Shown here piece by piece: positions 5,224 to 62,565 of a stretch of 64,000 bases of DNA (within the stretch, counting starts at the first letter, position 1; the number at the start of each line of letters is the position of its first letter). Where the stretch lies: assembly GCF_003334385.1 (NCBI RefSeq), contig NZ_QOWN01000022.1; one strand, 5' to 3'. The stretch is from Escherichia coli (lineage in GTDB: Bacteria > Pseudomonadota > Gammaproteobacteria > Enterobacterales > Enterobacteriaceae). The notes below the pieces were generated by a model. It was not told where the DNA came from, searched no databases, and was given only the letters and a program-made list of their open reading frames with translations. A program made the position numbers and the translations under genes.

Positions 5224-5236
5224 AAAGGAACATCTC

Positions 5237-44129: not shown

Positions 44130-45365
44130 CTACGATAACCGCGCATTCAACATGGCTATCTGTTCGTCGTTCATGTCATCAATCCACATACCGTAAATTT
44201 CATACACCATCTGCGCAGTTTCATGCCCCATTTGGCTGGCTATAAATGCCGGGTTCGCTCCTGCCGTCAACAGCCAGCAGGCAAAAGTATGCCGCGTATG
44301 GTACGGATTACGGCGGCGAATACCAGCACGTTTTACTGCTGCATTCCACCTTGCCCCCAAACTGCTTACCGAGTAATAAGGTTTTTGTTTTCCGTTACAC
44401 ACCCTGGGCATGAAAACAAAATGCAGTTTTTGCTTTTCGGTTCTGCCGTACTCCCGATGATAAAAGGTGATTTCGCTTTTGCGATGATGCCCGGTCAGTT
44501 TGTATTGCTCCTTCAGTGCTTCAAGAGCAGGCTGCAGTAGTGTTACTGTTCGGATCCCGGCATTTGTTTTTGGGGGACCGAACATATCAAGTATCGTCAG
44601 GTTTCTTCTGACATTCACTATTCCCTTTTCGAGATCCACATCCTCCCACGCCAGAGCTGCCAGTTCCCCGTGACGAAGTCCTGAGTAAACGGCAAATTTC
44701 CACAAGTTCTGGCTCTGTCCTTTTTCACTTTCCATTAATGCATTGAATTCTGTTTTAGATAACGGATCAGGCTTTATTCTGTTTCGCTGTAATTTTTTTA
44801 CTCCTTCAAATGGTTTGGTTGATATAAATCCCGACTGATACGCAAAACGCAACAGCGAACAGAGCAGGGCGATATAGTTATCAACTGTGCGCACGGTTCT
44901 TCCTTTTTTGTTGGATCTTGGATTATCCAGGTAAAGCGTTTCTCCATGCAGCAGTTCATTCCGGTAGTTTAAGATATCGCTATAACGAATATGTGATATC
45001 GGGGTACTTTCACAAATTATTATTCTGAGTGTTTTTAATTGTGATTTCGTTTTCTTCATTGTGTTTGTTGTTAACTCTGTCTCTTTAATTTTTGTCCAGA
45101 TATCACAAAGCTCTCCGAACGTTTTTATGACTCTCGTTGTCACCATTTTTGCCCCAGTGCTGGACTGGGGAAAACGTCTTAAATACTCAAATTCACCGGA
45201 GTTTATTTCATGAACTATCAGCGCTCTTAAATTTCCGGCCTTTTTAATATTACTGTTTGTAATCTCCCAGCCTTTTAATGTTTCCCGACATCGTTTTCCT
45301 CGAAACATGAACCAGATGCGAATGTATCTACCTCTAATCTCGACACCTGTTGGTAATTTAGACAT
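44130..45365 (-). CDS. intR: tyrosine integrase
   Basis: 411-aa ORF with the C-terminal catalytic region (HTRHTFACWLL...GHETAQMVYEIY). Confidence 0.95.
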   Translation of the reverse strand: MSKLPTGVEIRGRYIRIWFMFRGKRCRETLKGWEITNSNIKKAGNLRALIVHEINSGEFEYLRRFPQSSTGAKMVTTRVIKTFGELCDIWTKIKETELTTNTMKKTKSQLKTLRIIICESTPISHIRYSDILNYRNELLHGETLYLDNPRSNKKGRTVRTVDNYIALLCSLLRFAYQSGFISTKPFEGVKKLQRNRIKPDPLSKTEFNALMESEKGQSQNLWKFAVYSGLRHGELAALAWEDVDLEKGIVNVRRNLTILDMFGPPKTNAGIRTVTLLQPALEALKEQYKLTGHHRKSEITFYHREYGRTEKQKLHFVFMPRVCNGKQKPYYSVSSLGARWNAAVKRAGIRRRNPYHTRHTFACWLLTAGANPAFIASQMGHETAQMVYEIYGMWIDDMNDEQIAMLNARLS

Positions 45366-45660: not shown

Positions 45661-45870
45661 TTAATTTGAATACAATGCAATTCTCGAGGACTGAAGTTTC
45701 TCGCAATTAAAATTTATCAGTTTTACTTTCTGCTCTCTGGAAACGCCTGCTTCTTTTTTACCTGAGAGCATTTTTTCGCATTCTGATTTCGTTAGTTTAG
45801 ATTTTGAATATCTTGTCCAGTTAGTAGGAGTGCCACCTTCCTTTTCAATAGTGGCGGTAATTTTATACAT
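45661..45870 (-). CDS. ydaC: Rac prophage small protein YdaC
   Basis: 69-aa MYKITATIEKEGGTPTNWTRYSK ORF (an internal start of the 93-aa track ORF); overlaps the ralR stop. Confidence 0.75.
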   Translation of the reverse strand: MYKITATIEKEGGTPTNWTRYSKSKLTKSECEKMLSGKKEAGVSREQKVKLINFNCEKLQSSRIALYSN

Positions 45871-46112: not shown

Positions 46113-46922
46113 TTATTCCTCTGAATTATCGATTACACTGTATTCCCCGGTTAATACAGAGGAATCTGCAGGATCGATTGTCAGTGGTTCCTTTTCATCC
46201 ATTGATACTGCACGCTGGATCTCAATTGATACGGGCAGATATTTGAACAGGCGACGAATAGCCGTTTTCTTTGCCATTTCTTCCCAGTGAGTTACCCACG
46301 GCCCGTTATTACCAGCTTTACTCAGGCTGCGCACCAGCTCAATCTGTTTGCGCGTCATAACTTCAAACTGAGTACCTCCGTCTTTCAGTCTTGCGACAGC
46401 ATAGACGTGGGTAACCGGGGCATCTTCGTTTTCTCCCGGGCGGTGTATTAACTTTTCATCAAGGCCAAATTCGAAGCTAAACTCGTCACCTTCACGGACA
46501 ACACGGGCTGACAGGCTGGCGATTTGACCAGAACGGCGAGCCAGATCAATCATGCCGCGATAGCCAATGATTAGCTGAACGTTCTTTTTACCGCTCTTTT
46601 CGTTTTTATTACCAAAAGGCAGTAAATATGCATGACCGAGGGCGCTACCTGGCTCAAGTCCGAGCTGTGAACACTGTACGATCGCACTGACAAAACTCAT
46701 AGTGTCACAGTTTCCTAACGCCGGAACTTTACGAATTTCTGTGGTGGCGATACGGATCATACGTTCAGCCGTCATATGGCGTGGAAGAGCTGCTGCCAGT
46801 TGCTCTTTCATTGATGGCTGGTTAATAAAACTAATCACGTCGCTATTTTTAACTGCTGCTGGTGCACGGTTTCCCTGAGTTTTTTGCAGATCGGCTTTTG
46901 CGATTGGTGGTTGCTTAGTCAT
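46113..46922 (-). CDS. recT: single-strand annealing recombinase RecT
   Basis: Start at 46922 gives a 269-aa [18 protein letters not shown] protein; overlaps the recE stop. Confidence 0.95.
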
Positions 46923-49515
46923 TTGCATATTCCTTAGCCCAGCGGGGCAGTGATAATGTCTTAATAGCTGGCCATTCATCGGTATTCAGGCAGTCAGACA
47001 GGGTTCGCAGATTGCGGTGATATTCCTGTTGACCTGCCAGTTTTGCTTCTTCGCCCATCATGAAAATTTCAACCGGATAACGTCCGCATTCAATAGTTGT
47101 GCTGGCAACCAGAAAAACGAAAGTTGGCTGCACTCCAAACTGTGCTTCATAACCGTCACTGTAGAATGCATCCTGAACGTGATAGCGGTAGTCGTAATAA
47201 GCGGTTTTGAATCGTTGAATATCCGCCGTAGTTTTCACGTCCATGATCCAGTGAAATTCAGGGATAATTTTGTCCGGACGGCACCGACACAAAATTCCTG
47301 TTTCAGGATCTTCCCAGTAAATTGATGATTCAGCGTGTCCGGCGCTTTCAACAAGCCATTGCCCCAGCGGCAAAGCCATAACGCTTTGATACATGAGTTC
47401 AATTTTCCGGCCTTCTTCCGCAGTGATAACCGTTTTTCCTGTGCTTGCGCATTCCATCAGAAACGCTTTCTCTTCTTCTTTTCCGGCGTTTGTACGGCGG
47501 TTAAATTCAGGTGCTACGATAAAGCGGTTACTGAATTCTTCCGGTTCAAGTACCCGGCAGTGGAAAGCAGTTCCTAAATCGAGCGTTTTTGTCTTTGTGG
47601 TGTTCACGGGGGCATTTTTACGCCACAAATATAGTGCCGGAGTATCAGCAATGTCATCGAGCTGAGACTTACTGATACCGGGACCCGCGTGGTAATTCTC
47701 ATTCGAAATTCCGTAATAAATACCTGGCTCTATGTCTTCTACGATTACGGGATCTGCGACTTCGCCAGTTTCATCACTGCAATCGCGATGCGGATCGCTG
47801 CCAGCATTCTCATTGTGCGGATGTTCAGCGCCTTCCATTTCCTCCGGATCATTTTCCTTAGCTTCAACCTGACTCTCTTCATCGAATGTTTCCTGGTATG
47901 TTGCGTCGCCCATCACCGCACCACAGTCAGGGCCGTTATCCCCGCCAGTCTGGCCGCAGGCATTGCAGGCTATTTCCGGTTCCTGTTGCACTACTGGCTC
48001 AGGTTGATTCATATCTGGGCTGGTTTTTTCCGTTTCTGGCTGGTTCTGGTACACACAATCGCGAGTCTGGATCCCCTTTACCCATTTCGGATCGTTCGGG
48101 TCGCTAATTCCGTCAACAAATTCACCACGTGATGCAGCAAGCAATTTATCGGCATCGACAGGATTTTTTGATGGAATGTTTTTCCGGGCTTCATGGAGTT
48201 CTGCCCGCAGTTCCTGATATTTCGCATCAACAGAATTTACCTGTGACTGAGCATCCAGCGGCTGCGTGTCCTGATGATGTTCAGTTGCGTCCGGTTCCAT
48301 TGTTTCAGCCTCTCCCTGTTCAACTGCCGTTGTTCCAGATGGTTGCGGTTTTTCTTCATCATCCTGTTTTCCTTCTTCTGTTACTCGCTGCGGCATCGGG
48401 GCAGAGGAGCGACCGCAGGCAATATCCACGATTTCCGGATCAGGGTTGGCATGATCGGTTTCAGTCAGTACTTTGTTCAGATATTCAGTGACGTGCGCGG
48501 GGATGACCTCGATCCCAATTGGTGCTTCTTTTACGGACGCAACCACGATGGCGCGCGAATAATCCAGCCCGCCAGGCATGGTGATGAATTTGTCGCGGAA
48601 AACAGAAAAGGGCGGTTTATTTTCAGCGATAATTTCCTCAATGCGTTTAGCGTGTGCCGGATGAAGGTTATAGATGTCCAGATCCATTGAACGGGCCAGT
48701 ACGCCAGTGGCTACGTCGCGCGCCAGTGACGTCAGATCGTGTACGAAACCTTCGCCGCGATCGGTGAGGTTTCCGCCGCCAGCATTAGCACCGGAAGCCG
48801 TGCGAGTGATGTGTGAAACACGATTACCCTTCATCCACTCTTTTGTCAGCAGTCCTCGATCGGTGTAGTCAGCGTTCAGGTATGCTTCGAAAAAAGCAGT
48901 TATCAGTCCCAGGTTTGAATTACCAGGATTAGGGAAAACTTTGTCAGTGTCACGAACCAGTTTGTGGAGTTCGCGAATTTCCAGCGGGTCGAGCAGGCTG
49001 GTTTTGTGGGAAACAGCCAGGGCAGTAACAGCCGGTAGTTCTTCAGCCCGAGCAATGTGTAATGCCTGGAGTCCGTCGCGTGAAACGTGCGTTACCGGTT
49101 TTTCGCTGCCGTGTTGAGCAAGCCAACGAATGGGCAGTTCCTGGCCAGAAATTGGGAGTAGCATATTCTCCTCAATCTCAGTCATGTCTTCGCCGTTGAC
49201 GTTGGTATTGCCTTGATAGTGAGCGTTGTCTGGTGCTGCTCCCGGTTTTAGTTCCCATGTCATGGAGTCTTTGCTGAGTTGATAGCGTTCACTCCAGGTA
49301 AAATCGATCTCACCTTCAGCGGGCAGGTCATTAACGACAGGAAAATTCGTGGCAACAGCTTTAAAATAGCTGCTCAGTTTTTTACCTGACTTAACGATCA
49401 GGTAGTCCAGAGTGGCACAGGTCGATTCAAAATCGTTGCTTGCCCACAGGACGACGTCAGGTTCACCGGATGATTTTTTCGCTTTCCGTAACAGGAAGAG
49501 TGGTTTTGTGCTCAT
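46915..49515 (-). CDS. recE: exodeoxyribonuclease VIII
   Basis: 866-aa ORF with a C-terminal PD-(D/E)XK-type exonuclease domain; recognised as RecE. Confidence 0.95.
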
Positions 49516-49616
49516 TGTTTTTTAACCTCAACTCAGATTAAAATTCGTTTTGTTCAGTGAATGATCTTGCCGGATACACACTGTTCATAGCCTGCGCCAT
49601 ACGCAGGCTATTTCTT

Positions 49617-49892
49617 TCAGATTTCACCTTTTAATTTCATTGCAATTAGAGTTGCCAGAAATTCGGCTTTTTTTTCTGCGGGCAGATTCTTTCCGATATG
49701 CACCAGGCACATTTTTTTGACACCTTCATCAAGTGTTTTTACGTTGCCTGATGGACCATCGATATCAACCACAGTGAATGGGGTTTCTTTATTTTCTGTT
49801 TTAATTACGTAGCCAATGCGCTTTCCTTCCAGATTCACCTCGTGAACAATGTCATCGGTAGTTACAACAGTGGCTTCATAATTGGTAATCAT
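49617..49892 (-). CDS. racC: Rac prophage protein RacC
   Basis: Start at 49892 gives a 91-aa MITNYEATVVTTDDIVHEV protein. Confidence 0.85.
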   Translation of the reverse strand: MITNYEATVVTTDDIVHEVNLEGKRIGYVIKTENKETPFTVVDIDGPSGNVKTLDEGVKKMCLVHIGKNLPAEKKAEFLATLIAMKLKGEI

Positions 49893-49966
49893 GTTTTTCT
49901 CCTTAATTAAGGTTGAGCGAATACCTGCCATTTCTGGCATAAATTCAGTTTCGAATAGTCAATTAA

Positions 49967-50137
49967 TTAAAGTTCATGTGCCATCTGGTCTTTTTCGGCA
50001 CAAGCTTCACTGCAATATTTTCTCGGTTCGTCTTTTGATAAAATCCCGTGCATGAAGTGAAGCATTCTTTCAATAGCTTTGCTTTTTTCAACGTCTTTTT
50101 TGCAAAGGTGGTAAGCACATTTTATTTTCTTAGTCAT
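49967..50137 (-). CDS. ydaE: small Cys-rich protein YdaE
   Basis: My own translation; below the track cutoff. [56 protein letters not shown], 56 aa. Its ATG overlaps the kilR stop (ATGA). Confidence 0.8.
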   Translation of the reverse strand: MTKKIKCAYHLCKKDVEKSKAIERMLHFMHGILSKDEPRKYCSEACAEKDQMAHEL

Positions 50138-50358
50138 CACCATGACTCCGCCTTTACAGGTAAACCATCACGACCGAGGAAGACTTTAATCATGCGGTCA
50201 GTAATGCATGTTTTTGTGGTCAGGTTACGAATATATAGTTTTCGCTTTTTAATATTGTTTGCCGAGGCAATATATGTCCGGCCTTCATGAAGAACATAAT
50301 CGCCAGGAGTCACACACTGACGTGGTATTTCATCAGTTCCGAAGTGATGTGCAATCAT
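50137..50358 (-). CDS. kilR: FtsZ-targeting cell division inhibitor KilR
   Basis: 73-aa [24 protein letters not shown]; recognised as KilR. Confidence 0.9.
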
Positions 50359-50799
50359 AATTATCTCCATTTTTACAAATGAACTTTGTTGATGCGGTGC
50401 CTGGTGCCTCCAGGTGACTGCAACCAGTTAACAATTACAGTCGGCTTTCCCACCCAAACCAATAAGGACTAACATGACTTTTAACTGTGCCACGTGCGCT
50501 TAGCCGCATTCACCGCATCACAAAATTCACTTTAAAAAGGGCGGACATCAGCCGAACTTCAAGAAAAAAACTGATGCCGCCAGGACTACACACAGCAATG
50601 TCGTTATTTACAACCGGAGGCGCACTCCCACCATTTAAATTTAACAGACAAGACCGACTCTTTATGGATATCGGAAATGCGCCTTCGTGTTGTGCCCGGT
50701 TTTATTTCACCACCTCCGGGCTTCGGTGGTCTCGGCTATACCCCTACAGCGAGAGCTTGTGTTAACATTTCAATACCCTTACAGTTGAGAGTTATTGAT

Positions 50800-51288
50800 A
50801 TGTTGGATGTATTTACTCCATTGTTGAAACTTTTTGCTAACGAGCCACTCGAAAGACTTATGTATACGATTATCATTTTTGGTCTCACTCTCTGGCTGAT
50901 ACCGAAAGAGTTTACTGTCGCATTCAATGCTTATACTGAAATACCTTGGCTCTTTCAGATTATCGTTTTTGCCTTTTCTTTCGTGGTCGCCATTTCCTTC
51001 TCAAGATTGCGAGCACATATTCAAAAGCATTATTCATTACTACCAGAGCAACGAGTATTGCTTCGTTTATCTGAGAAAGAAATCGCTGTATTTAAAGATT
51101 TCCTTAAAACAGGAAATCTTATTATCACTTCTCCTTGCCGTAACCCGGTTATGAAAAAATTAGAACGGAAGGGCATCATTCAACATCAGAGTGATAGCGC
51201 AAACTGTTCTTATTATCTCGTCACCGAAAAATACTCCCATTTTATGAAGTTATTCTGGAACAGCAGGAGTAGACGTTTTAATCGTTAG
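50800..51288 (+). CDS. sieB: superinfection exclusion protein B
   Basis: ATG at 50800 gives a 162-aa MLDVFTPLLKLFANEPLERLMY protein with two TM segments. The track's 203-aa form adds an implausible N-terminal extension. Confidence 0.9.
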   Translation: MLDVFTPLLKLFANEPLERLMYTIIIFGLTLWLIPKEFTVAFNAYTEIPWLFQIIVFAFSFVVAISFSRLRAHIQKHYSLLPEQRVLLRLSEKEIAVFKDFLKTGNLIITSPCRNPVMKKLERKGIIQHQSDSANCSYYLVTEKYSHFMKLFWNSRSRRFNR

Positions 51289-51440
51289 CTTACTGTGTGC
51301 TTCTCCAACCATCGGCGCGCACCAGTTTCGGTTTTAAATATTTTGCTTTTTGTATACGTCATCGCGGTGAACGTTCCATCCTGGTTGGGGAACACGCCGC
51401 ACACCAGGGATTCGTTATTGCGGAGGTCGATTTTTTGCAT
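51285..51440 (-). CDS. ydaF: Rac prophage small protein YdaF
   Basis: My own translation. MQKIDLRNNESLVCGVFPNQDGTFTAMTYTKSKIFKTETGARRWLEKHTVS, 51 aa. Its stop overlaps the sieB stop convergently. Confidence 0.75.
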   Translation of the reverse strand: MQKIDLRNNESLVCGVFPNQDGTFTAMTYTKSKIFKTETGARRWLEKHTVS

Positions 51441-51450
51441 TTTTCGCACC

Positions 51451-51585
51451 TCACATTTTGTTGTTGCGGATAGAGGCTTCTGCCTGCCAGAGATCCCAGT
51501 CGTTGCTGCGTAAAGCCTGCACAGCCTGGTTGTAAGTGATGCCGCAACAATCCATCAAATACTGAACTACTTCGTAATGCACCAT
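51451..51585 (-). CDS. ydaG: Rac prophage small protein YdaG
   Basis: My own translation. MVHYEVVQYLMDCCGITYNQAVQALRSNDWDLWQAEASIRNNKM, 44 aa, preceded by ggagagataag. Confidence 0.75.
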   Translation of the reverse strand: MVHYEVVQYLMDCCGITYNQAVQALRSNDWDLWQAEASIRNNKM

Positions 51586-51754
51586 CTTATCTCTCCCCTT
51601 AACGCCGGGTGGCGGAACTAACTGCTGCACTGCAAAATTTGAATCCCGCCGTCATGTTCATACGCCTCGGGCTGGCTACTTAACCCCTTACCACTGCCTG
51701 GTAACTCGAAGTATTGCCCGGCGTTCTGTGGGGCGGGGTGGGTGGTATGCTGGA

Positions 51755-51823
51755 ACTATAGGTAATGCCTAATTGATTGTCAATAGGTTATGCCTAATGT
51801 TTTGAGCGTAACCTAATAGGTGA
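51755..51823 (-). promoter_or_regulatory. PL-like promoter with three repressor operators
   Basis: On the minus strand: -35 TTGACA (51783-51778), a 17-nt spacer, and -10 TATAGT (51760-51755). The 15-bp 6-3-6 sites are ATAGGTAATGCCTAA (51758-51772), ATAGGTTATGCCTAA (51783-51797) and the degenerate TAACCTAATAGGTGA (51809-51823). Confidence 0.65.
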
Positions 51824-51893
51824 TGGCGACAGCAGAAAGTGATGGGGGGGTTAAATAACGGAATCCAGGAGTTTTCCGTCAGACCATATAAGT

Positions 51894-52370
51894 TTAAGTT
51901 CCAGTTTTTGTGATGTTCTGGCTTTTCCGTTCAGATTCTAGAGCTTTCAGATACTTACCCACTTTCATTTCCATCGCTGCTATGTAGGCGCGAACATCGT
52001 GGTCAACCCAATCTGGTTCTGTAGCATTTCCAGATAACAGGAAAGCTACAATCGCTCTTATTTCATCAGAGGCTGCTTGATAAAGGTTGTTTATATCTAA
52101 AAGTTCACTTTTTGTATCTGAATTGGTGGGGGTTGGTATGGGGTATTCGTTAAGCCCCCAATGCTCTGGACCAACAACATCAGAAAAGAAACGCCATAAT
52201 TCTGGAAGTTTATCTTTACTTATAGAGCCTTTCTTAATCCAGTCATAAATTGATGGTGGTTGGACTTTGAAGTGGCGTGCGACCTCCGCCTTTGATTTGA
52301 CGGATCCCGATGCGATTTTTTTGTTAATGGCCTGCTCTATCGCTCGGCCTAAGTCTTTACCACTAAGCAT
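51894..52370 (-). CDS. racR: CI-like prophage repressor
   Basis: 158-aa ORF with an N-terminal HTH (SKAEVARHFKVQPPSIYDWIKK), divergent from the Cro-like ydaS. Confidence 0.92.
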   Translation of the reverse strand: MLSGKDLGRAIEQAINKKIASGSVKSKAEVARHFKVQPPSIYDWIKKGSISKDKLPELWRFFSDVVGPEHWGLNEYPIPTPTNSDTKSELLDINNLYQAASDEIRAIVAFLLSGNATEPDWVDHDVRAYIAAMEMKVGKYLKALESERKSQNITKTGT

Positions 52371-52398
52371 TGCTTAATATTCTCCTATGCGCATTACA

Positions 52399-52467
52399 TT
52401 AGGCAATCCCTACCCTTATCGCATTAGGCATAGCCTATTGACAATTGCGTTAGGCGTAGCCTAATAT
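52399..52467 (+). promoter_or_regulatory. PR-like promoter with three repressor operators
   Basis: -35 TTGACA (52438-52443), an 18-nt spacer, and -10 TAATAT (52462-52467). The sites are TTAGGCAATCCCTAC (52399-52413), TTAGGCATAGCCTAT (52424-52438) and the perfect palindrome TTAGGCGTAGCCTAA (52450-52464). Confidence 0.7.
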
Positions 52468-52493
52468 TTCTGTGTGTTTTTGGAGTTCATTCG

Positions 52494-52790
52494 ATGAAAA
52501 AAGAGAACTATTCATTCAAGCAAGCTTGTGCTGTTGTCGGTGGGCAATCAGCAATGGCTAGGCTTTTAGGTGTATCACCTCCAAGCGTAAATCAATGGAT
52601 CAAAGGGGTACGTCAATTGCCTGCCGAGAGATGTCCAGCAATTGAACGTGCAACAAGAGGTGAGGTTCTGTGCGAAGAACTTCGTCCTGATATTGACTGG
52701 TCATATTTACGACGTTCGGCATGTTGTTCGCAGAATATGTCAGTGAAGCAACTAAATGACAGTAACAAATCCTCATTTGATCATACCTGA
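52494..52790 (+). CDS. ydaS: Cro/CII-like HTH protein (toxic when derepressed)
   Basis: 98-aa ORF with HTH QSAMARLLGVSPPSVNQWIKG; first gene of the rightward operon. Confidence 0.9.
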   Translation: MKKENYSFKQACAVVGGQSAMARLLGVSPPSVNQWIKGVRQLPAERCPAIERATRGEVLCEELRPDIDWSYLRRSACCSQNMSVKQLNDSNKSSFDHT

Positions 52791-52812
52791 AACATCAAGA
52801 GGCAAATGATTC

Positions 52813-53235
52813 ATGAAAATCAAGCATGAGCACATCGAATCAGTGTTGTTTGCCCTGGCAGCCGAAAAAGGGCAGGCATGGGTAGCCAATGCAATTACTG
52901 AAGAATATCTGCGCCAGGGGGGCGGCGAATTGCCCCTGGTTCCAGGCAAGGACTGGAACAATCAGCAGAATATCTATCACCGTTGGTTGAAAGGTGAAAC
53001 GAAAACGCAAAGAGAAAAAATTCAGAAGCTGATCCCAGCAATTCTGGCAATCCTTCCGCGCGAGCTGCGTCACCGATTCTGCATCTTCGATACCCTGGAA
53101 CGCCGTGCATTACTGGCGGCGCAGGAAGCGTTAAGTACGGCAATTGATGCGCATGATGATGCAGTCCAAGCCGTTTACCGGAAAGCGCATTTCAGCGGCG
53201 GCGGGTCTTCCGACGATTCTGTCATTGTTCATTAA
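52813..53235 (+). CDS. ydaT: Rac prophage protein YdaT
   Basis: 140-aa ORF MKIKHEHIESVLFALAAEKGQAW in the conserved position after ydaS. Confidence 0.88.
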   Translation: MKIKHEHIESVLFALAAEKGQAWVANAITEEYLRQGGGELPLVPGKDWNNQQNIYHRWLKGETKTQREKIQKLIPAILAILPRELRHRFCIFDTLERRALLAAQEALSTAIDAHDDAVQAVYRKAHFSGGGSSDDSVIVH

Positions 53236-53247
53236 GCAAAAGTTTCC

Positions 53248-54105
53248 ATGCTGTTTGTGCTTATTCTAAGCAACCGGGCAGCATCATACGGGGCAATTAT
53301 GGCCGCATTACCATACATGCAACTGTACATAGCTGATTACCTGGCTGACACCATGCATTTGTCAGCAGAGGAGCACGGTGCGTATTTGTTGCTGATGTTC
53401 AATTACTGGCAAACAGGAAAGCCAATACCCAAAAACAGGCTGGTAAAAATTGCCCGCCTGACTAACGAGCGATGGGCTGATGTTGAACCATCCTTGCGGG
53501 AGTTTTTTTGCGATAACGGCGAGGAATGGGTGCATCTTCGGATTGAGGAAGATCTGGCATCAGTCAGGGAAAAATTAACCAAAAAATCAGCCGCAGGAAA
53601 AGCATCGGTTCAGGCCAGAAGAAGCAGAAAGGAAGCAGATGTTCAAACAAAACAAGAGAGAAATTTAACAGGTGTTCAAACAGATGTTGAAGTGGTGTTT
53701 GAACATGATGTCAACACAAAGGCAACTAATAAAGATACAGATAAAGATCTAAAAACAGATCCCCCCCTAAATCCCCCCCGGGGGAATCGAGGTGTTAAAA
53801 AGTTTGACCCTCTGGATATTGCTTTGCCGAACTGGATTTCTGTCTCGCTTTGGCGTGAGTGGGTTGAATTTCGCCAGGCATTGCGTAAACCGATTCGAAC
53901 GGAGCAGGGCGCTAACGGGGCGATACGGGAGCTGGAAAAATTCCGCCAGCAGGGTTTTTCACCTGAGCAGGTGATTAGACACAGCATTGCCCATGAATAC
54001 CAGGGCTTGTTTGCGCCGAAAGGCGTTCGGCCTGAGACGTTGCTTCGACAGGTTAACACCGTCTCGTTTCCGGACAGTGCGATCCCACCAGGCTTCAGGG
54101 GGTAA
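53248..54105 (+). CDS. ydaU: replication initiator-like protein (DUF1376, lambda O analog)
   Basis: 285-aa ORF; the N-terminal YMQLYIADYLADTMHLSAEEHGAYLLLMFNYW matches the DUF1376 pattern. Confidence 0.88.
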   Translation: MLFVLILSNRAASYGAIMAALPYMQLYIADYLADTMHLSAEEHGAYLLLMFNYWQTGKPIPKNRLVKIARLTNERWADVEPSLREFFCDNGEEWVHLRIEEDLASVREKLTKKSAAGKASVQARRSRKEADVQTKQERNLTGVQTDVEVVFEHDVNTKATNKDTDKDLKTDPPLNPPRGNRGVKKFDPLDIALPNWISVSLWREWVEFRQALRKPIRTEQGANGAIRELEKFRQQGFSPEQVIRHSIAHEYQGLFAPKGVRPETLLRQVNTVSFPDSAIPPGFRG

Positions 54106-54111
54106 CGAAGC

Positions 54112-54858
54112 ATGAAAAATATTGCGACAGGCGGCGTTCTGGAACGTATCCGCAGACTGGCCCCGCCACATGTAACCGCGCCATTCAGGACGGTGGCGGA
54201 GTGGCGCGAGTGGCAACTTGCAGAAGGCCAGAAACGTTGTGAGGAGATCAACCGTCAGAATCGTCAGTTGCGGGTGGAAAAAATCCTGAATCGCTCCGGC
54301 ATCCAGTCGTTGCACCGCAAATGCTCGTTTTCGAATTACCAGGTGCAGAACGAAGGGCAGCGATACGCGTTGAGTCAGGCGAAATCCATCGCTGATGAAC
54401 TGATGACCGGGTGTACAAATTTTGCGTTCAGCGGAAAACCTGGTACCGGAAAAAACCATCTGGCGGCGGCTATCGGGAATCGCCTGCTGAAAGATGGCCA
54501 GACAGTGATTGTGGTTACCGTGGCTGATGTCATGAGTGCCCTACACGCCAGCTATGACGACGGGCAATCAGGCGAAAAATTTTTGCGGGAACTGTGCCAA
54601 GTGGATCTGCTGGTTCTTGATGAAATTGGCATTCAGCGCGAGACAAAAAACGAGCAGGTGGTGCTGCACCAGATTGTTGATCGCCGGACAGCGTCGATGC
54701 GCAGCGTGGGGATGCTGACAAACCTGAATTATGAGGCCATGAAAACATTGCTCGGCGAGAGGATTATGGATCGCATGACCATGAACGGCGGGCGATGGGT
54801 GAATTTTAACTGGGAGAGCTGGCGTCCGAATGTCGTCCAGCCAGGAATTGCGAAGTAA
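54112..54858 (+). CDS. ydaV: DnaC/IstB-like helicase-loader ATPase
   Basis: 248-aa ORF with Walker [10 protein letters not shown] and Walker B LLVLDEIG. Confidence 0.92.
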
Positions 54859-54880
54859 TTTTTACCGGGAGAAAAATTTA

Positions 54881-55642
54881 ATGGAGACTGTTTTTGACGC
54901 ACTGAAAGCAATGGGAAAAGCTACATCCATAGAACTTGCTGCGCGACTTGATATCAGCCGTGAAGAAGTGCTGAACGAACTATGGGAACTGAAAAAGGCT
55001 GGTTTCGTTGATAAAAGCGCGTACACCTGGCGTGTGGCTGATAACAACGTTCAGCAGGAACAGCCAGCGCCGGCAGAACTGCCGGAAGAAACTACCACGG
55101 CAACAGTCGCGAAAATTTCAGAGAGCGATTTAACTGCGACGATTGAACAACGTGGTCCACTAACTGCGGATGAACTGGCTACGTTGTTCGGTACCACATC
55201 CCGCAAAGTGGCTTCAACGCTGGCAATGGCAATCAGCAAAGCTCGTCTGATTCGCGTTAATCAGAACGGTAAATTTCGTTACTGCATGCCGGGCGGTAAT
55301 TTACCAGCAGAGCCGAAAGCTGCATCGGTAGCGGAAACAGATGGTAAAGCCTTTCCTCAGCTAGCCGGTGTTGCGTTACCAGTACAGGAAGCTGCAACAC
55401 AGGAAGATATTAAAACAGAAACTGTGGCGGACATTGTGCAGTCGTTGCCATCGTTTACTGAAACGCAAGCGGATAACCTGATTTTACCATCGCTGCATAT
55501 GGCAAACCGTGAACTGCGTCGGGCGAAAAATCATGTCCAGAAGTGGGAGCGAGTCTGCGCCGCGCTGCGGGAGCTGAACAAGCACCGGGATATTGTTCGA
55601 CAGATTACTGATTCTTCCCGCCGTGTTGTATCGGAAAAGTGA
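54881..55642 (+). CDS. winged-helix phage protein (DUF1627-like), full-length counterpart of K-12 ydaW
   Basis: ATG at 54881 after gggaga gives [43 protein letters not shown], a MarR-like wHTH. The track start at 54830 overlaps ydaV and is less likely. Confidence 0.7.
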
Positions 55643-55657
55643 TTGCCGAAGGCGCTT

Positions 55658-56089
55658 ATGGCAAAAGTATTTACACAAGAAGAGCGAGAAAAAATTAAAG
55701 GGCAGGTTGTTGAGCTAGTACGCCGGAGTGGGCGCGAGACGTTACGGCAACTGGAAGCCAAGACAGGTGCGACAAGATATCTGATGAGCGTTCTCGCCAG
55801 AGAGCTGGTTGCCAGTGGCGATGTATACAACTCTGGTTACGGGTTATTCCCGTCTGAACAGGCTCGTAAGGACTGGCAAAATGCCCGCAAAAAACTATCT
55901 AGGGCAAAGGTGAAGAAACCATCTGTGGTTGATCCGGACCTTATCTGGTCATTACCAGACGGAGAAATACGCCGCTACGACAGGCGTCTGAACATAATCT
56001 GTCGCGAGTGCCGGAAGAGCGAAGTTATGCAGCGTGTGCTGGCGTTTTATCAGAATGGTTTTCGAGAGAGGCTTGGAGATCAGGGATGA
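55658..56089 (+). CDS. hypothetical phage protein
   Basis: 143-aa ORF from ATG 55658 (the track start at 55643 is TTG). It opens with a wHTH-like N-terminus (VELVRRSGRETLRQLEAKTGATRYLMSVLARELVASG). GC-normal, last gene before the AT-rich island. Confidence 0.6.
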   Translation: MAKVFTQEEREKIKGQVVELVRRSGRETLRQLEAKTGATRYLMSVLARELVASGDVYNSGYGLFPSEQARKDWQNARKKLSRAKVKKPSVVDPDLIWSLPDGEIRRYDRRLNIICRECRKSEVMQRVLAFYQNGFRERLGDQG

Positions 56090-56307
56090 ATAGAACGATG
56101 AAGGATGGAAGCTACATATTCTCGGTACTAAGATTTATTTTTCTGACACAAAATGACCATTTGGCGTTACATAATCCCAAAAAAACGTATCAAAAATCTC
56201 AAAATGCGTTACGATTAGAGAGTATTTTGATTCTGCGTGCTCATTTTTTGATTGCTGTGGCTTTTTGTTGTGGGAGTGTTGAATGGATTATTTATCAGAA
56301 GTGTTAA
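56086..56307 (+). CDS. possible small hydrophobic ORF at the island's left edge (speculative)
   Basis: An internal ATG of the track ORF 56008-56307, preceded by GGAGA at 56075-56079. ATGA overlap with the upstream stop; 25-nt overlap with the ATPase start. 73 aa with hydrophobic stretches YIFSVLRFIFL and ILILRAHFLIAVAFCCG. Confidence 0.25.
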   Translation: MNRTMKDGSYIFSVLRFIFLTQNDHLALHNPKKTYQKSQNALRLESILILRAHFLIAVAFCCGSVEWIIYQKC

Positions 56308-57437
56308 AAATCATTGAAGGTGCAACAAAGGCAAATGCTTCGATGGCTAGTAATTATGCTGGGTTGCTGGCAGATAAGCTCGAACAAAAAGGGGAGGTCA
56401 AGCAAGCCAGAATGATAAGAGAAAGGTTGCTTAGAGCTCCCCAGGCGTTGGCAGGAGCTCAAAGGGCTGGAGGTGGGATATCTCTGGGCTCATTACCGGT
56501 AGATATTGATAGTCGACTCAACACTGTTGATGTCAGTTATCCTAAATTAGACAGTTCAGAGATTTTTCTGCCTGCAGCAATCAGTACCCGTGTTGAAGAG
56601 TTTATCACTAATGTTCAACGTTATGATGAGTTTGTTAAAGCTGATGCAGCATTGCCGAGTCGTATGCTCGTGTATGGAAAGCCAGGAACAGGTAAGACTA
56701 TGTTATCTAAGTACATCGCTACCCGCTTAGATTTTCCACTTCTTACAGTGCGTTGCGATACTTTGATTAGTAGTTTATTGGGACAAACCAGCAAAAATCT
56801 TAGACAGGTTTTCGATTATGTAATGCAGAGGCCATCAGTGCTTTTTTTAGACGAATTTGATGCTTTAGCTGGAGCAAGAGGTAATGAGAGAGATATAGGT
56901 GAGCTTCAGCGAGTTGTCATTTCACTATTGCAGAATATGGATGCGGCATCAGAGGATACGGTAATTATTGCCTCAACTAACCATGAGCAACTTCTGGATC
57001 CTGCAATCTGGAGGCGATTTAGCTTCAGAATTCCAATGCCTCTGCCTGACATACATCAGAGAGAGTTAATTTGGAAAAATCGTTTAAAGAATATGATATG
57101 TAGCGATCTAGATTTAAGTGATTTATCAAGAAAATCGGAAGGATTATCCGGAGCAATAATTGAACAGGTGAGCTTGGATGCACGTAGGGATGCAGTTATT
57201 GAAGGTGCAAGTGTGATAAATCACCACAAATTGTATAGGCGTTTGTATCTTGCTCAATCGCTTATGGAAGGTGTAAATTTAAGCACTTACGAAGATGAAA
57301 TTCGTTGGTTACGTTCTAAAGATAAAAAATTATTTTCTATCAGAGTTCTTGCTAATTTGTACAAACTTACATCAAGAGTAATTTCAAACATTCTGAAGGA
57401 GTCAGGAGCATATGAGCAGAAGGGGTACACAGTTTAG
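56283..57437 (+). CDS. classical-clade AAA+ ATPase (candidate defence-system ATPase, IetA-like)
   Basis: 384 aa. Walker A GKPGTGKT (res 132-139), Walker B VLFLDEFD (186-193), sensor-1 STNH (N233). The second region of homology carries Arg fingers in PAIWRRF (R244/R245). SD gggag lies 6 nt upstream. Confidence 0.9.
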   Translation: MDYLSEVLKIIEGATKANASMASNYAGLLADKLEQKGEVKQARMIRERLLRAPQALAGAQRAGGGISLGSLPVDIDSRLNTVDVSYPKLDSSEIFLPAAISTRVEEFITNVQRYDEFVKADAALPSRMLVYGKPGTGKTMLSKYIATRLDFPLLTVRCDTLISSLLGQTSKNLRQVFDYVMQRPSVLFLDEFDALAGARGNERDIGELQRVVISLLQNMDAASEDTVIIASTNHEQLLDPAIWRRFSFRIPMPLPDIHQRELIWKNRLKNMICSDLDLSDLSRKSEGLSGAIIEQVSLDARRDAVIEGASVINHHKLYRRLYLAQSLMEGVNLSTYEDEIRWLRSKDKKLFSIRVLANLYKLTSRVISNILKESGAYEQKGYTV

Positions 57438-59676
57438 TAACGCAAAAGTTACAAACCCAACGTTAAGAATCCCTTTTTCCAGTAGTGACTTGGGTGCAAT
57501 AGTAAACGCTGGCGGTGGGGCAAAGGTATTGGTTGATGTAACAGCCGAATATAGACAAGGGCTAGTAAGAAATTTAACAACCAGTAAACATTATTTAGAA
57601 TCCAAACTTTCAGAGTACCCTGGAAGCTTGGGTACTTTGGTTTTCAAATTAAGAGACCAGGGAATAGCCAAAACGCATAGGCCGAACAAAATTGCTCAAG
57701 AGGCTGGATTGCAAAATGCCGGTCATGCCAAAATAGATGAAATGTTGGTTGCTGCTCATGCCGGCTGTTTTGACGTATTAGAGTCAGTCATTTTAAATCG
57801 GAATATTAAAGCGATTTTGGCTAATCTAAGCGCGATTGAGCGCATTGAACCTTGGGATGAGAATAGGAAGGTTCCGGGAGGCACTGATGGTTTGTTTGAA
57901 TCATCAAACATCCTTGTACGACTATTTGAGTACACAGGTGAAGATGCAACTTACAACAACTATGAAAACGTTATTTCTATATTAGAACAATACGGAGTTA
58001 AATATGATGAAATTAGACAAAAATGTGGTCTTCCCTTATTAAGGATAATGGATTTATCCCCAAGTGATAGATATATATTAGACATTCTCATTGATTACCC
58101 GGGTATAAGAACGTTAATTCCAGAACCAAAATATTCAGCATTCCCGGTTAGTGTAAGTGATTCTGTTGGCATTGAAACAAATAGCTTTCCCGTACCATCA
58201 GAAGAATTACCCATTGTTGCTGTATTTGACACTGGGGTAAGCCCCATCGCGGCAACAATTACTCCTTGGGTAGTGAGTAGGGAAACATACGTAATTCCTC
58301 CTGATACGAGTTATGAACATGGGACTATGGTGTCTTCATTGATATCAGGCGCTCATTTTTTAAATGACAATCATCCATGGATTCCTGATACAAAATCTAA
58401 AATCCATGATGTTTGTGCTTTAGATGAAAATGGATCTTATATATCAGATTTAATTCTGAGGCTAGCAGATGCTGTAAATAAAAGACCAGATATAAAAGTC
58501 TGGAATTTGTCTTTGGGAGGCGGACCATGTAATGAGCAGATGTTTAGTGATTTTGCGATGGAGTTAGATCGGCTCAGCGATAAATTTGGTATTTTGTTTG
58601 TAGTTGCTGCAGGTAATTATGTAGATGAACCTATACGTACATGGCCAAATCCTGATCCGCTTGGAGGTGCTGATTTAATTTCCTCTCCTGGAGAGTCAGT
58701 CCGAGCACTAACAGTTGGTTCAGTTTCTCATATGGAAGCTAATGATGCTTTAAGTGAAATTGGAACACCGACACCATATACTCGTCGTGGCCCTGGGCCT
58801 GTATTTACTCCAAAGCCAGATATAATCCATGCTGGCGGTGGGGTTCATAGACCTTGGAATGTAGGAGCAAGCAGTTTAAAGGTCGTAGGGCCAGATAATA
58901 GGCTTTGCTCTAATTTTGGTACTAGTTTTGCTGCTCCAATTGTGGCAAGTTTAGCTGCGCATACATGGCAGAGAATAGCCACTAATTCAGACTTTAATGT
59001 TTCACCATCATTGATTAAAGCATTATTAATTCATTCCGCTCAATTATCTTCTCCTGATTACTCGCCAAGTGAAAGACGCTATTTGGGAGCGGGAATTCCT
59101 AATGAGGTTATTGAGACCTTATATGATAGTGATGATAGGTTTACTCTGATTTTCCAAACATTCTTGGTTCCTGGGGTGAGGTGGAGAAAGGAAAACTATC
59201 CCATACCATCGGCACTTATTCAAAATGGAAAATTTAAAGGTGAGATTGTAATTACTGCTGCATATGCACCACCACTAAACCCTAATGCCGGCAGTGAATA
59301 TGTTCGCGCGAACGTAGAGCTAAGTTTTGGCTTAATTGAGAATAATACTATAAAAGGAAAAGTGCCTATGGAAGGAGAAAACGGTCAATCTGGATATGAG
59401 AGAGCTCAAATTGAGCATGGTGGAAAGTGGTCACCAGTAAAAATTCATCGCAAGGCATTTAATAAAGGAATTACTTCGGGTAACTGGGCTCTTCAGGCTA
59501 AAACAACGTTGAGAGCGAATGAACCGGCCTTAATGGAGCCTTTACCTGTAACTATTGTAGTAACTTTAAAATCATTAGATGGAAACACACAAGTTTATGC
59601 TGATGGTGTAAGAGCTTTAAATGCTAATAACTGGGCTCACTATCCATTGCCTGCTCGTGTGCCAGTTTCCGTATAA
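57412..59676 (+). CDS. large cytoplasmic S8 subtilisin-like serine protease (candidate defence effector, IetS-like)
   Basis: 754 aa. Catalytic Asp in VAVFDTGV (D273, nt 58228-58230), His in EHGTMV (H303, nt 58318-58320), oxyanion Asn in AAGNY (N401), Ser in GTSFAAP (S505, nt 58924-58926). No signal peptide. The start overlaps the ATPase gene by 26 nt. Confidence 0.9.
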   Translation: MSRRGTQFSNAKVTNPTLRIPFSSSDLGAIVNAGGGAKVLVDVTAEYRQGLVRNLTTSKHYLESKLSEYPGSLGTLVFKLRDQGIAKTHRPNKIAQEAGLQNAGHAKIDEMLVAAHAGCFDVLESVILNRNIKAILANLSAIERIEPWDENRKVPGGTDGLFESSNILVRLFEYTGEDATYNNYENVISILEQYGVKYDEIRQKCGLPLLRIMDLSPSDRYILDILIDYPGIRTLIPEPKYSAFPVSVSDSVGIETNSFPVPSEELPIVAVFDTGVSPIAATITPWVVSRETYVIPPDTSYEHGTMVSSLISGAHFLNDNHPWIPDTKSKIHDVCALDENGSYISDLILRLADAVNKRPDIKVWNLSLGGGPCNEQMFSDFAMELDRLSDKFGILFVVAAGNYVDEPIRTWPNPDPLGGADLISSPGESVRALTVGSVSHMEANDALSEIGTPTPYTRRGPGPVFTPKPDIIHAGGGVHRPWNVGASSLKVVGPDNRLCSNFGTSFAAPIVASLAAHTWQRIATNSDFNVSPSLIKALLIHSAQLSSPDYSPSERRYLGAGIPNEVIETLYDSDDRFTLIFQTFLVPGVRWRKENYPIPSALIQNGKFKGEIVITAAYAPPLNPNAGSEYVRANVELSFGLIENNTIKGKVPMEGENGQSGYERAQIEHGGKWSPVKIHRKAFNKGITSGNWALQAKTTLRANEPALMEPLPVTIVVTLKSLDGNTQVYADGVRALNANNWAHYPLPARVPVSV

Positions 59677-59690
59677 CAACTATATAAATC

Positions 59691-59720
59691 AAACCCGCTG
59701 TAGCGGGTTTGATTTATTTG
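59691..59720 (+). terminator. rho-independent terminator of the ATPase-protease cassette
   Basis: aaacccgc-tgta-gcgggttt hairpin followed by gatttatttg, 15 nt after the protease stop. Confidence 0.8.
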
Positions 59721-60092
59721 TGGGTGTGTTTTATAAAAATACCGCCCATACACAACAAAATACAAAAAGTATTACAGATAAAAAAGGAGCGTAATGTGCA
59801 GATTTGTTGTTTTCCATATTTACTCACCTTAATATGATTAATCCTGATAAGATTGTTATTTCAGCGGTTTTCAAATGAGATATTATGCTAATCTGGCAGA
59901 TTTGCATAACATTAAAATTTAATTTGTCTAACCGCTTTTAATAATAAGCGTTGTATTTTTATCCCAGCAATCTATTGTTTGATTTTTATTCCATCAATGT
60001 GGGGGCTTTACACTGGAACCAGTTTATTTATACTTTATACGTCAGCCTGAACAACTGGCATCTGCTGCACTGCGCCATCGAGAGATTGAGAA

Positions 60093-60692
60093 ATGGCGCA
60101 TATACAACTGGTCAAACAAACCTCTTCTGGTTTACTTCTCCCGGCGACGCCGGAGAGTTGCGATTTTCTGCATCAAATCAAAATAGGTGAGTTGATACAC
60201 GCAGACTTTAAGCGTGTGCGTAACTACGCATTCCACAAGCGTTTTTTCAAACTCCTGCAACTGGGATTCGATTACTGGACTCCGGTCGGTGGGGCGATCA
60301 CGCCTCGCGAACGAGAACTGCTGTCTGGTTTCGTTGATTACCTGTGCGAATCAGTTGGTCGGGAACACACGCCAGCCCTGAGTGATGCCGCAGAGCAATA
60401 CCTTAACACCGTTGCGACTCGTAGAACCCGGGATACGGCGTTGCTAAAGTCGTTTGAGGCTTTCCGCGAGTGGGTAACCATTCAGGCCGGATTTTACACC
60501 GAGCATATTTATCCGGACGGTAGCCGTGGGCGTCGGGCAAAATCCATCGCTTTTGCGAATATGGACGAAGTCGAGTTTCAGCAGGTTTATAAATCTGTAC
60601 TGAATGTGCTGTGGAACTGGATTCTGTTCCGTAAATTCTCCTCTCAGGAGGAAGTTGAAAATGTGGCCGCACAACTACTGGAGTTTGCGTAA
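60093..60692 (+). CDS. lambdoid nin-region protein (DUF1367-like)
   Basis: 199-aa ORF MAHIQLVKQTSSGLLLPATPESCDFLHQIKIGE. Family assignment is from recollection of prophage annotations. It is coupled (ATGG overlap) to the next gene. Confidence 0.6.
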   Translation: MAHIQLVKQTSSGLLLPATPESCDFLHQIKIGELIHADFKRVRNYAFHKRFFKLLQLGFDYWTPVGGAITPRERELLSGFVDYLCESVGREHTPALSDAAEQYLNTVATRRTRDTALLKSFEAFREWVTIQAGFYTEHIYPDGSRGRRAKSIAFANMDEVEFQQVYKSVLNVLWNWILFRKFSSQEEVENVAAQLLEFA

Positions 60693-61628: not shown

Positions 61629-62565
61629 ACGTCAGGAAAGCAGGGGAGAATGCTGCTAGTTGGGCAACTGGTCTTTCTGCTCCAAATTATAACAGAGACC
61701 AGTTATAGTTTCGGTGCTGTGTTTTTTTTACAATATTGTGATAACACATTGCTGGCGGGAGTTTTGATATTTCTTGGCAGGGGCTGATGATGCGTTATCC
61801 TGATGTCGTCAACTCATATAAAATGAGATGAGAGATCATTGCAGGGTGGTTTGTAATTCGCTGTTTAGCGGGACAATATGTTGTCTGATACAAGACACCC
61901 GACGCCTCAGATTACTATAATAAAGACGAAGCATCCTTTGTATTGACCAACCGCCTGTTTAGGCGGTTCTTTCTGGGCTGGTTTATTGTATGCCAAATGA
62001 TTATTAAAAAGGTTGTGTTAATAACAAAATCCGAAATAATATGCCTGCATATTTTTATCTTGCTTATATTCTGCATATTGTGCATAGCAGGCTCATCCCT
62101 GCAATCAAAACTGTATGATGAGTATTTTTTGTTTTCCTTTTTTCCAGTCATCTGATGATGACCTGCTTCTTTTTAATCCGGATCGACATCAGTTTTTTAA
62201 GATAATTCCTGCGAGTTATATGCATAAATGCCACAAACTCCGCATTTTATGTGGTTGGGAGTTGCCGGGCGCGCAGTGAGTTTGCTAAGAAAACTCCTGC
62301 ATGGTGAATCCCCCTGTGCGGTGGGGTGATACCATTAACCTTTTCTGTCGCCGACAGGTATCACGAACATTTTGTTCACCGGGAGGCACCCGGCACCATG
62401 CACTTCAATAGATTCTCTCCACATTATGGATATTCTTTCAGAATATCCCACGCAGACTTTGTGTAAATGTTAACAAATGTGCGTTTTATTTGATCTGATT
62501 CGCTGTTTGAGCGTCCAAAACAACGGTATATATAATCCTTTACTATATGACATATGTGAGGAAAA

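Follow-up and report, generated by a model that had tools for sequence, protein, structure and literature searches.

The window analysed here, a 64,000-nucleotide (nt) stretch of Escherichia coli DNA (assembly GCF_003334385.1, contig NZ_QOWN01000022.1), carries within a Rac-type prophage a two-gene cassette encoding a AAA+ ATPase followed by a cytoplasmic S8 subtilase. We identify this cassette, with high confidence, as an intact copy, residing in Rac, of an already known two-gene system, IetAS (IteA/IteS), which is toxin-antitoxin-like and also acts in anti-phage abortive infection. The analysis establishes the identity of the pair, the intactness of its active sites, the cytoplasmic location of the protease, the obligate pairing of the two genes and the nature of the cassette as mobile cargo.

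The identification follows from full-length matches to PADLOC models, NCBIfam scores above the model cut-offs and the labels given in RefSeq. IetA matches PADLOC IetA (PDLC02196) at 8.9e-143, with residues 1-374 on profile positions 1-371 of 374, and IetS matches PADLOC IetS (PDLC02197) over its full length at 1.7e-300. Both proteins also exceed the thresholds of NCBIfam equivalog models, NF042959 for IetA (IteA_antiphage, 'anti-phage ATPase IteA'; 526.6 bits, cut-off 510) and NF042956 for IetS (IteS_antiphage, 'S8 family anti-phage peptidase IteS'; 1042.8 bits, cut-off 900). These matches bear out a preliminary description of the cassette, in which the IetAS name had been proposed. Pfam sees AAA in IetA and Peptidase_S8 (5.6e-26) in IetS, and nothing further. 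PHROGs assigns the pair to dedicated, function-less families (phrog_3757 and phrog_3964), and the search for a phage morphogenesis or housekeeping family, which had been suggested as a check, found none. RefSeq labels the genes iteA and iteS, and the cassette is carried by 78 of 5,426 complete E. coli genomes at a DNA identity of at least 99%, with a divergent copy (66%) in one further genome. None of these copies is plasmid-borne, and among the E. coli records listed the cassette occupies the same prophage slot every time.

The IetAS system is already known, having been named since 2009/2020, and it is covered by the curated PADLOC and NCBIfam models and annotated automatically in RefSeq. This particular allele has also been handled before. 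Wu et al. (bioRxiv 10.1101/2022.08.21.504612) cloned 'ietAS from ECOR52' behind pBAD on a plasmid, and their primers FN0414/FN0415 match the window with 0 mismatches at 56091-56112 and 1 mismatch at 60072-60092. The cloned DNA thus covers this locus from leader to trailer, with both genes and the hairpin in between, and the allele of the window has therefore already been tested against 29 phages. The suggestion that a prophage-borne copy would be a good entry point thus overstated the novelty, as the genes are named in RefSeq and the ECOR52 cassette has been cloned and phage-tested.

A relationship to TRIP13 and CBASS was considered and rejected, the TRIP13 profile match being weak (2.4e-16, vs 8.9e-143 for IetA); no HORMA or CD-NTase genes were found near the cassette among the open reading frames (ORFs) of the window or in the RefSeq context. 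A PDB sequence search returned no solved structure of IetA or IetS, only generic p97 and subtilase matches.

Architecture of the cassette and its two proteins

The cassette, its parts and the genes on either side are as follows (positions of the window; aa, amino acids; GC, G+C fraction).

55643..56089, + strand: Ren-like exclusion protein / DUF977 gene, left flank (PHROG phrog_142, 2.6e-46; RefSeq DUF977)
56090..56282, + strand: AT-rich leader, GC 0.35
56283..57437, + strand: ietA (iteA), 384-aa single-module classical-clade AAA+ ATPase, putative antitoxin partner by analogy to homologues
56283..56468, + strand: IetA N-terminal three-helix bundle in the predicted model, residues 1-62, followed by a disordered linker; without Pfam family
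56676..56699, + strand: IetA Walker A GKPGTGKT, residues 132-139 (K138)
56769..56792, + strand: IetA pore-loop-1 position SSLLGQTS, residues 163-170
56838..56861, + strand: IetA Walker B VLFLDEFD, residues 186-193 (E191)
56973-57020, + strand: IetA sensor-1 N233 and Arg fingers R244/R245 (STNH at 231, PAIWRRF at 240)
57288..57398, + strand: IetA C-terminal small helical domain, residues 336-372, helix-turn-helix-like (FSIRVLANLYKLTSRVISNILKE)
57404-57408, + strand: AGGAG, 3 nt upstream of the ietS ATG (57412)
57412..57437, + strand: ietA/ietS overlap of 26 nt, suggesting translational coupling
57412..59676, + strand: ietS (iteS), 754-aa cytoplasmic S8 subtilase, putative toxin/effector by analogy to homologues
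57412..58161, + strand: IetS N-terminal alpha/beta domain, residues ~1-250
58213..59049, + strand: IetS S8 catalytic domain, residues 268-546, with D273, H303, N402 and S505
59137..59571, + strand: IetS C-terminal beta-sandwich, residues ~576-720
59641..59673, + strand: IetS C-terminal tail, residues 744-754 (...HYPLPARVPVSV)
59677..60092, no strand assigned: AT-rich trailer, GC 0.34
59684..59717, + strand: terminator-like hairpin with a 15-bp stem and 4-nt loop, then a U-rich tract
60093..60692, + strand: NinB/Orf recombination mediator (DUF1367), right flank and start of the nin region (phrog_319, 2.2e-69)

Both ORFs were confirmed as first described, two co-oriented genes that overlap by 26 nt between the ietS start at 57412 and the ietA stop at 57437. 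GC is 0.40 in both ietA and ietS, against 0.50 and 0.49 in the flanking phage genes and 0.484 in the window, and GC counts made by hand on sample lines (0.283, 0.35, 0.467 and 0.633) were reproduced exactly. The AT-rich flanks, put earlier at about 190 and 370 bp, come to 193 nt for the leader and 416 nt from ietS to the ninB start, or ~372 nt when counted from the hairpin. The cassette does have its own hairpin terminator, the computed span of which is 59684-59717 rather than 59691-59720, with an RNA minimum free energy of -23.9 kcal/mol (z = -6.3 vs shuffles). A consensus terminator scanner flags it on the minus strand only, as some of the T run is taken up in the full-length stem. A promoter scan of the 193-nt leader gave no sigma-70 match of at least 9/12; candidates seen by eye are weak and none is claimed.

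IetA has the fold of the classical AAA clade (threading machines), with the Walker A and B motifs, sensor-1 and the second region of homology with its Arg fingers all present. The motifs GKPGTGKT, VLFLDEFD, STNH and PAIWRRF lie where they had been placed, and the catalytic set K138, D190/E191, N233 and R244/R245 is invariant in an alignment of 35 homologues. The predicted structure (mean predicted local distance difference test score, pLDDT, 78.9) consists of an N-terminal bundle, a disordered linker, one AAA module with its lid, and a C-terminal helical domain. The MIT-like N-terminal bundle, in which A22, Y25, L28-A30, K32, L33, G37, R46, L49 and A52 are invariant, is a candidate partner-docking domain. 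Pore loop 1, positioned by eye from motif spacing against p97 D2, reads SSLLGQTS, with 7 of its 8 residues invariant and L165 conserved in at least 90% of the same 35 homologues. This loop is non-aromatic, having S-L-L-G (L165-L166-G167) where an aromatic-hydrophobic-Gly motif is expected of threading AAA+ unfoldases, and the SSLLG motif is also kept in the IetA of the Agrobacterium lineage.

The C-terminal domain of IetA (residues 336-372) is predicted with pLDDT >90 and appears helix-turn-helix (HTH)-like. The families HTH_23/28/11/36 match 3-6 of 19 IetA-family C-termini (HTH_23 in 6 of the 19, best E 3.1e-5), and the Agrobacterium IetA homologue carries a textbook HTH at this place (ARILGVSRQAIYAYLK). 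The C-terminal fragment of the window IetA itself gave no HTH family match at threshold, and Pfam searches up to E 10 with the N- and C-terminal regions of both window proteins gave no match. No mention of an HTH-like IetA C-terminus was found in the IetAS literature outside the founding papers of 2009 and 2020. The fold and the family matches suggest antitoxin-type DNA binding and operon autoregulation as candidate functions only.

IetS carries an intact subtilase active site, in which D273, H303, N402 (the oxyanion Asn) and S505 are invariant in 38 homologues. The first assignment was right for D273, H303 and S505 and off by one for the Asn, residue 401 being Gly. No signal peptide or transmembrane segment was found in IetS (longest hydrophobic run of 3 in the first 45 residues; maximal 19-aa Kyte-Doolittle mean of 1.48), in line with the reported lack of a secretion signal, and the protein does not have the build of a secreted subtilase with a signal peptide and an inhibitor_I9-type propeptide.

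The structure of IetS is predicted with a template modelling score (pTM) of 0.85. Its N-terminal domain is conserved within the subfamily (K87, H89, R90, P91, E110 and M111 are invariant), belongs to no Pfam family, has structural matches only to generic Rossmann-like folds and is not alignable by BLAST to the Agrobacterium lineage. A classical subtilisin propeptide was rejected for this domain on the grounds of the missing Pfam family and the Rossmann-like matches, and we regard it as a candidate regulatory or sensor domain. The S8 core and the C-terminal beta-sandwich together resemble subtilases of the KP-43/Tk-SP type. The tail is disordered in the model and proline-rich. Among close relatives it is conserved as NW...LPVRVPV, and homologues of 26-34% identity, archaeal ones included, still have a basic/hydrophobic ...VRV... 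end. We regard the tail as a candidate docking or engagement tag for IetA.

Pairing, spread and the prophage slot

Pairing of the two genes was surveyed in species-representative genomes, where IetS relatives of 26-84% identity are encoded at 76 loci. At 71 of these, which is 71 of 71 testable loci, the gene immediately upstream, on the same strand, codes for an IetA homologue; the 5 excluded loci comprise 3 without upstream DNA (contig ends) and 2 with C-terminal IetS fragments only. The proposed co-occurrence check thus came out in favor of a two-gene unit. In close relatives the spacing between ietA and ietS ranges from -31 to +56 nt. The loci span Proteobacteria, Acidobacteria, Bacteroidota, Verrucomicrobia and Firmicutes as well as two archaea, and IetAS pairs with no phage genes around them also occur in many phyla and in archaea, where they lie on plasmids, integrative and conjugative elements (ICEs) and chromosomes.

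A Citrobacter prophage carries a copy of the cassette that is 81% identical and likewise lies downstream of ydaU/ydaV-like (replication) genes. The DNA homology begins 122 nt 5' of the ietA ATG (at 56161), and its other end coincides exactly with the ietS stop codon, such that the proximal leader (56161-56282, ~81% conserved) is shared, and the DNA further upstream and the trailer are not. This conserved leader contains GCGTTAC twice and a 12-nt inverted repeat (ATCAAAAATCTC/GAGTATTTTGAT, 56189-56200 / 56220-56231), and may be the promoter/operator region of the cassette.

The cassette is cargo of mobile elements, with 40% GC against ~50% in its flanks, a position in the ren|ninB slot and a Citrobacter prophage copy, as had been surmised from its look of an acquired moron. 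It occupies the boundary that lies between ren and ninB in lambda, with a Ren-like protein on the left and NinB on the right, in agreement with its earlier placement in a variable slot between replication and nin genes. Other lambdoid prophages have different cargo at this boundary: QueH and HokD, ParA and Hok, or several small ORFs and HokD. The locus is also an example of toxin and defence genes carried as cargo at the ren|ninB boundary of Rac-like prophages. In E. coli F9792, the ren-to-ninB slot of a lambdoid prophage (4485-5968, minus strand) holds two overlapping hypothetical genes (555 and 933 nt) beside hokD, which may be another uncharacterised two-gene cargo module.

A joined-flank search of lambdoid prophages, in which the left matches end at query 409-430, places the slot edges at approximately 56052-56072 on the left and 60078-60081 on the right. 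The comparison with prophages lacking the insert, intended to define the junctions, yielded these approximate edges and no exact ones, because no empty-slot genome was found: Ren-like and NinB genes lie within ~1 kb of each other in 0 of the 5,426 E. coli genomes.

The window is 99.95-99.97% identical to E. coli SCU-104. It runs through pspF, the ycj genes, tyrR, fnr, the abg genes and ttcA, followed from ~44130 by the prophage in the order intR, xisR, rcbA, ralR, recT, recE, racC, ydaE, kilR, sieB, racR, ydaS, ydaT, ydaU, ydaV, DUF1627, DUF977, iteA, iteS, and the DUF1367, DUF1364 and DUF1133 genes. The order of ttcA and then intR through ydaV is that of Rac, as first recognized. The K-12 MG1655 Rac prophage is 98.2% identical over 49129-55330 of the window; the homology stops inside the DUF1627 gene (54830-55642) and resumes at rzpR, and the K-12 gene 'ydaW' is a truncated remnant of the DUF1627 gene joined to rzpR. 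The earlier statement that K-12 Rac lacks the cassette is correct, solely because one deletion (55330 to rzpR) took the ren-like gene and the cargo slot together with the nin, Q and lysis genes.

The GenBank record ON470595.1 ('Escherichia phage vB_EcoS-683R6, partial genome') also carries the cassette (IetS 99.1% identical), annotated as 'cell division protein FtsH' and 'S8 family peptidase'. Its reading as a free virion was rejected, since the record includes the host genes smrA, dgcM, zntB, dbpA and ttcA; it represents Rac prophage DNA flanked by chromosome and provides no independent evidence of an active phage.

Several further observations concern the prophage and the cassette copies. 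The genes intR (44130-45365, 411 aa), recE (46915-49515, 866 aa) and ydaV (54112-54858, 248 aa) are intact ORFs in the window, and all three are annotated as disrupted (frameshifts or internal stops) in SCU-104; the Rac copy of the window may be less decayed than most. Rfam models detect the RalA antitoxin small RNA (sRNA), partner of the ralR toxin, at 45686-45864 (+ strand, 225 bits), and the sRNA STnc100 at 62269-62455 (+ strand, 86.6 bits), downstream of the Q-like gene. In E. coli F2_81 (NZ_CP043542.1) an IS3-family transposase splits the cassette flank, such that 56000-60100 matches in two pieces, and both cassette genes are contiguous and 100% identical.

Proposed mechanism and alternatives

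The roles of toxin and antitoxin, the dependence on protease activity, abortive infection and triggering by a phage protein are carried over from homologues, and would apply to the present allele by analogy. According to PMC13069673, which cites the founding work, IetAS was first described as a plasmid-stabilising toxin-antitoxin system with a protease toxin and an ATPase antitoxin. In the same study (April 2026), defence depended on protease activity, and cloning of a system carrying a mutated ietA proved impossible. The related toxin SgiT of SGI1 kills E. coli in <30 min unless SgiA is present (PMC5006074). IetAS of B. cereus m1293 acts by abortive infection and becomes toxic upon expression of yosG of SPbeta (Stokar-Avihail et al., bioRxiv 10.1101/2022.08.27.505566). 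By what means IetAS acts against phages is still not known according to PMC13069673, and surveys say likewise. The preliminary statement that no mechanism is known therefore holds at the molecular level and fails for the toxin and antitoxin roles and abortive infection of homologues, which have been published.

We envisage the following sequence of events. In the uninfected lysogen, IetA and IetS would be made together from one transcript, as the gene arrangement suggests. IetA, probably as a hexamer, would use ATP to hold or remodel IetS in an inactive state, its antitoxin role being that of the homologues. Upon infection, an early phage protein may disturb this restraint, as with the Bacillus homologue, and the freed IetS would then cleave cell or phage proteins, such that growth stops before the phage cycle is completed. 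The same toxin property would make loss of the cassette costly, and the cassette would tend to stabilise the Rac prophage. Within this scheme we infer that IetS is held in an ATP-dependent manner, that its tail docks on the bundle of IetA and that the HTH-like domain mediates autoregulation via the leader repeats.

Several points weigh against this interpretation. The functional data come from relatives, and the Agrobacterium pair is only 39% (IetA) and 28% (IetS) identical to the window pair, with an unalignable IetS N-terminus. The ECOR52 allele alone was among the single systems that, Gabija excepted, had 'limited anti-phage activity' on the 29-phage panel (10.1101/2022.08.21.504612). No sigma-70 consensus promoter was found in the leader, so that expression in a repressed lysogen is an assumption, with read-through from the early-right operon as the alternative; the pore loop of IetA has no aromatic residue, so that the mode in which it would restrain IetS is tentative. 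The substrates, the trigger of this allele and a direct contact between IetA and IetS are likewise proposals.

It is possible, though on balance rather unlikely, that the cassette serves chiefly as a module for addiction (post-segregational killing) that stabilises Rac, with any anti-phage effect incidental. Such a role would be consistent with the discovery of the founding IetAS as a Ti plasmid stability/incompatibility determinant and with the stabilisation of SGI1 by SgiAT (PMC5006074), the limited phage protection given by the ECOR52 allele alone, the frequency of Hok toxins among the slot cargo of related prophages, and the conservation of the cassette at 99% or more in 78 genomes, with no other location among the records listed. 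However, SgiAT under its own promoter caused no post-segregational killing (PMC5006074), and IetAS homologues lower phage plating (PMC13069673), one being triggered by a specific phage protein (10.1101/2022.08.27.505566). Addiction and defence are compatible with each other and not exclusive.

A more specific and speculative version of the restraint model, unlikely to hold in all its parts, makes IetA a Vps4-like, ATP-burning 'dead-man switch' antitoxin. The N-terminal bundle would dock the IetS tail (...LPARVPVSV), the Leu-Leu-Gly pore would hold or remodel the protease without degrading it, and the HTH-like domain would repress the operon via 56161-56282; blocking of the ATPase, titration of the bundle or a drain on ATP would then free the protease. 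If this held, the combination of energy dependence and a built-in repressor domain in one AAA+ antitoxin would set its regulatory logic apart from that of other toxin-antitoxin and abortive-infection systems.

The opposite arrangement, in which IetA is an activating sensor or unfoldase that, on sensing phage, turns the protease on by unfolding or removing an inhibitory part of it, had been put forward in the preliminary description, and we consider it improbable. The large conserved N-terminal domain of IetS could be auto-inhibitory, IetA does belong to an unfoldase clade, and in the work of Gao and colleagues in 2020 mutation of either gene is reported to have abolished defence. In homologues, however, the protease is toxic alone and the ATPase rescues, and one system with mutated ietA resisted cloning (PMC13069673, PMC5006074); toxicity of the lone protease with rescue by the ATPase is the reverse of what an obligate activator would predict, so that the homologue data favor a restraining antitoxin. 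Very improbable is a function in the lytic cycle of the phage itself, whereby the pair, as part of the early-right operon, would remodel host or phage proteins or exclude competitors after induction rather than serve as a lysogen-expressed defence. In its favor, the cassette has the orientation of the replication genes and follows directly downstream of them, the leader scan gave no consensus promoter, and the dedicated PHROG families imply that the pair recurs in phage genomes. Against it, the same pair occurs away from phage genes in many phyla and in archaea, whether on plasmids, ICEs or chromosomes, and the cassette ends in its own strong terminator, moves between different prophages with ~120 nt of its leader and has a GC foreign to the phage backbone.

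With restraint of the protease by IetA as the preferred reading, the remaining value of the locus is as a well-defined example for asking by what means a AAA+ ATPase keeps a cytoplasmic subtilase in check and which proteins the subtilase cleaves. Modest leads are provided by the HTH-like C-terminus of IetA, its invariant non-aromatic pore loop and MIT-like bundle, the conserved, disordered tail of IetS, and the ~120 nt of leader that move along with the genes.

Relation to known systems

Among classical AAA proteins, the Vps4/spastin/katanin and FtsH/p97-type enzymes have an aromatic-hydrophobic-Gly pore loop, whereas IetA has Leu-Leu-Gly. Compared with these enzymes, IetA adds a C-terminal HTH-like domain and has no fused protease or membrane anchor, its partner being a separate subtilase.

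The ietHAS system (Liu-DS4; PMC13069673) shares the IetA and IetS modules and needs protease activity for defence, but also includes IetH, an essential helicase of the SNF2 family; there is no helicase gene next to the window pair. IetAS of B. cereus m1293 is a Gram-positive homologue, matched to the window pair through the shared system name, and its trigger YosG is without known coliphage counterpart. SgiAT (PMC5006074) resembles the window pair in combining a AAA-ATPase antitoxin and a subtilase toxin on a mobile element. Its carrier is an integrative mobilisable island rather than a prophage, and it stabilises SGI1 when IncA/C plasmids are present; the paper gives no phage data.

The founding IetA/IetS pair of pTiC58 (Yamamoto et al. 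2009, J Bacteriol 191:4656) resembles the window pair in its A-then-S operon and in the almost equal sizes of the two proteins, and has the protease as toxin and the ATPase as antitoxin; it is plasmid-borne and is reported to have been described for plasmid stability/incompatibility rather than for phage defence. As a representative of the founding lineage (not pTiC58 itself), an Agrobacterium cucumeris plasmid pair of 374 and 752 aa has the same architecture. The window IetA is 39% identical to its counterpart (2e-61), and IetS is 28% identical over residues 260-736 (3e-31). The features shared with the Agrobacterium lineage include the classical AAA module with the SSLLG pore loop, an HTH-like C-terminal domain, and the S8 core with its C-terminal domain.

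The closest relative is IetAS of ECOR52, essentially the same object as the window cassette as judged by the primers, possibly a few single-nucleotide polymorphisms apart, and studied on a plasmid, whereas the window copy sits in a prophage. Wu et al. (10.1101/2022.08.21.504612) found E. coli ietAS to be prophage-located and mutually exclusive with Zorya II, and reported that ietAS and Zorya II act in synergy against T3.

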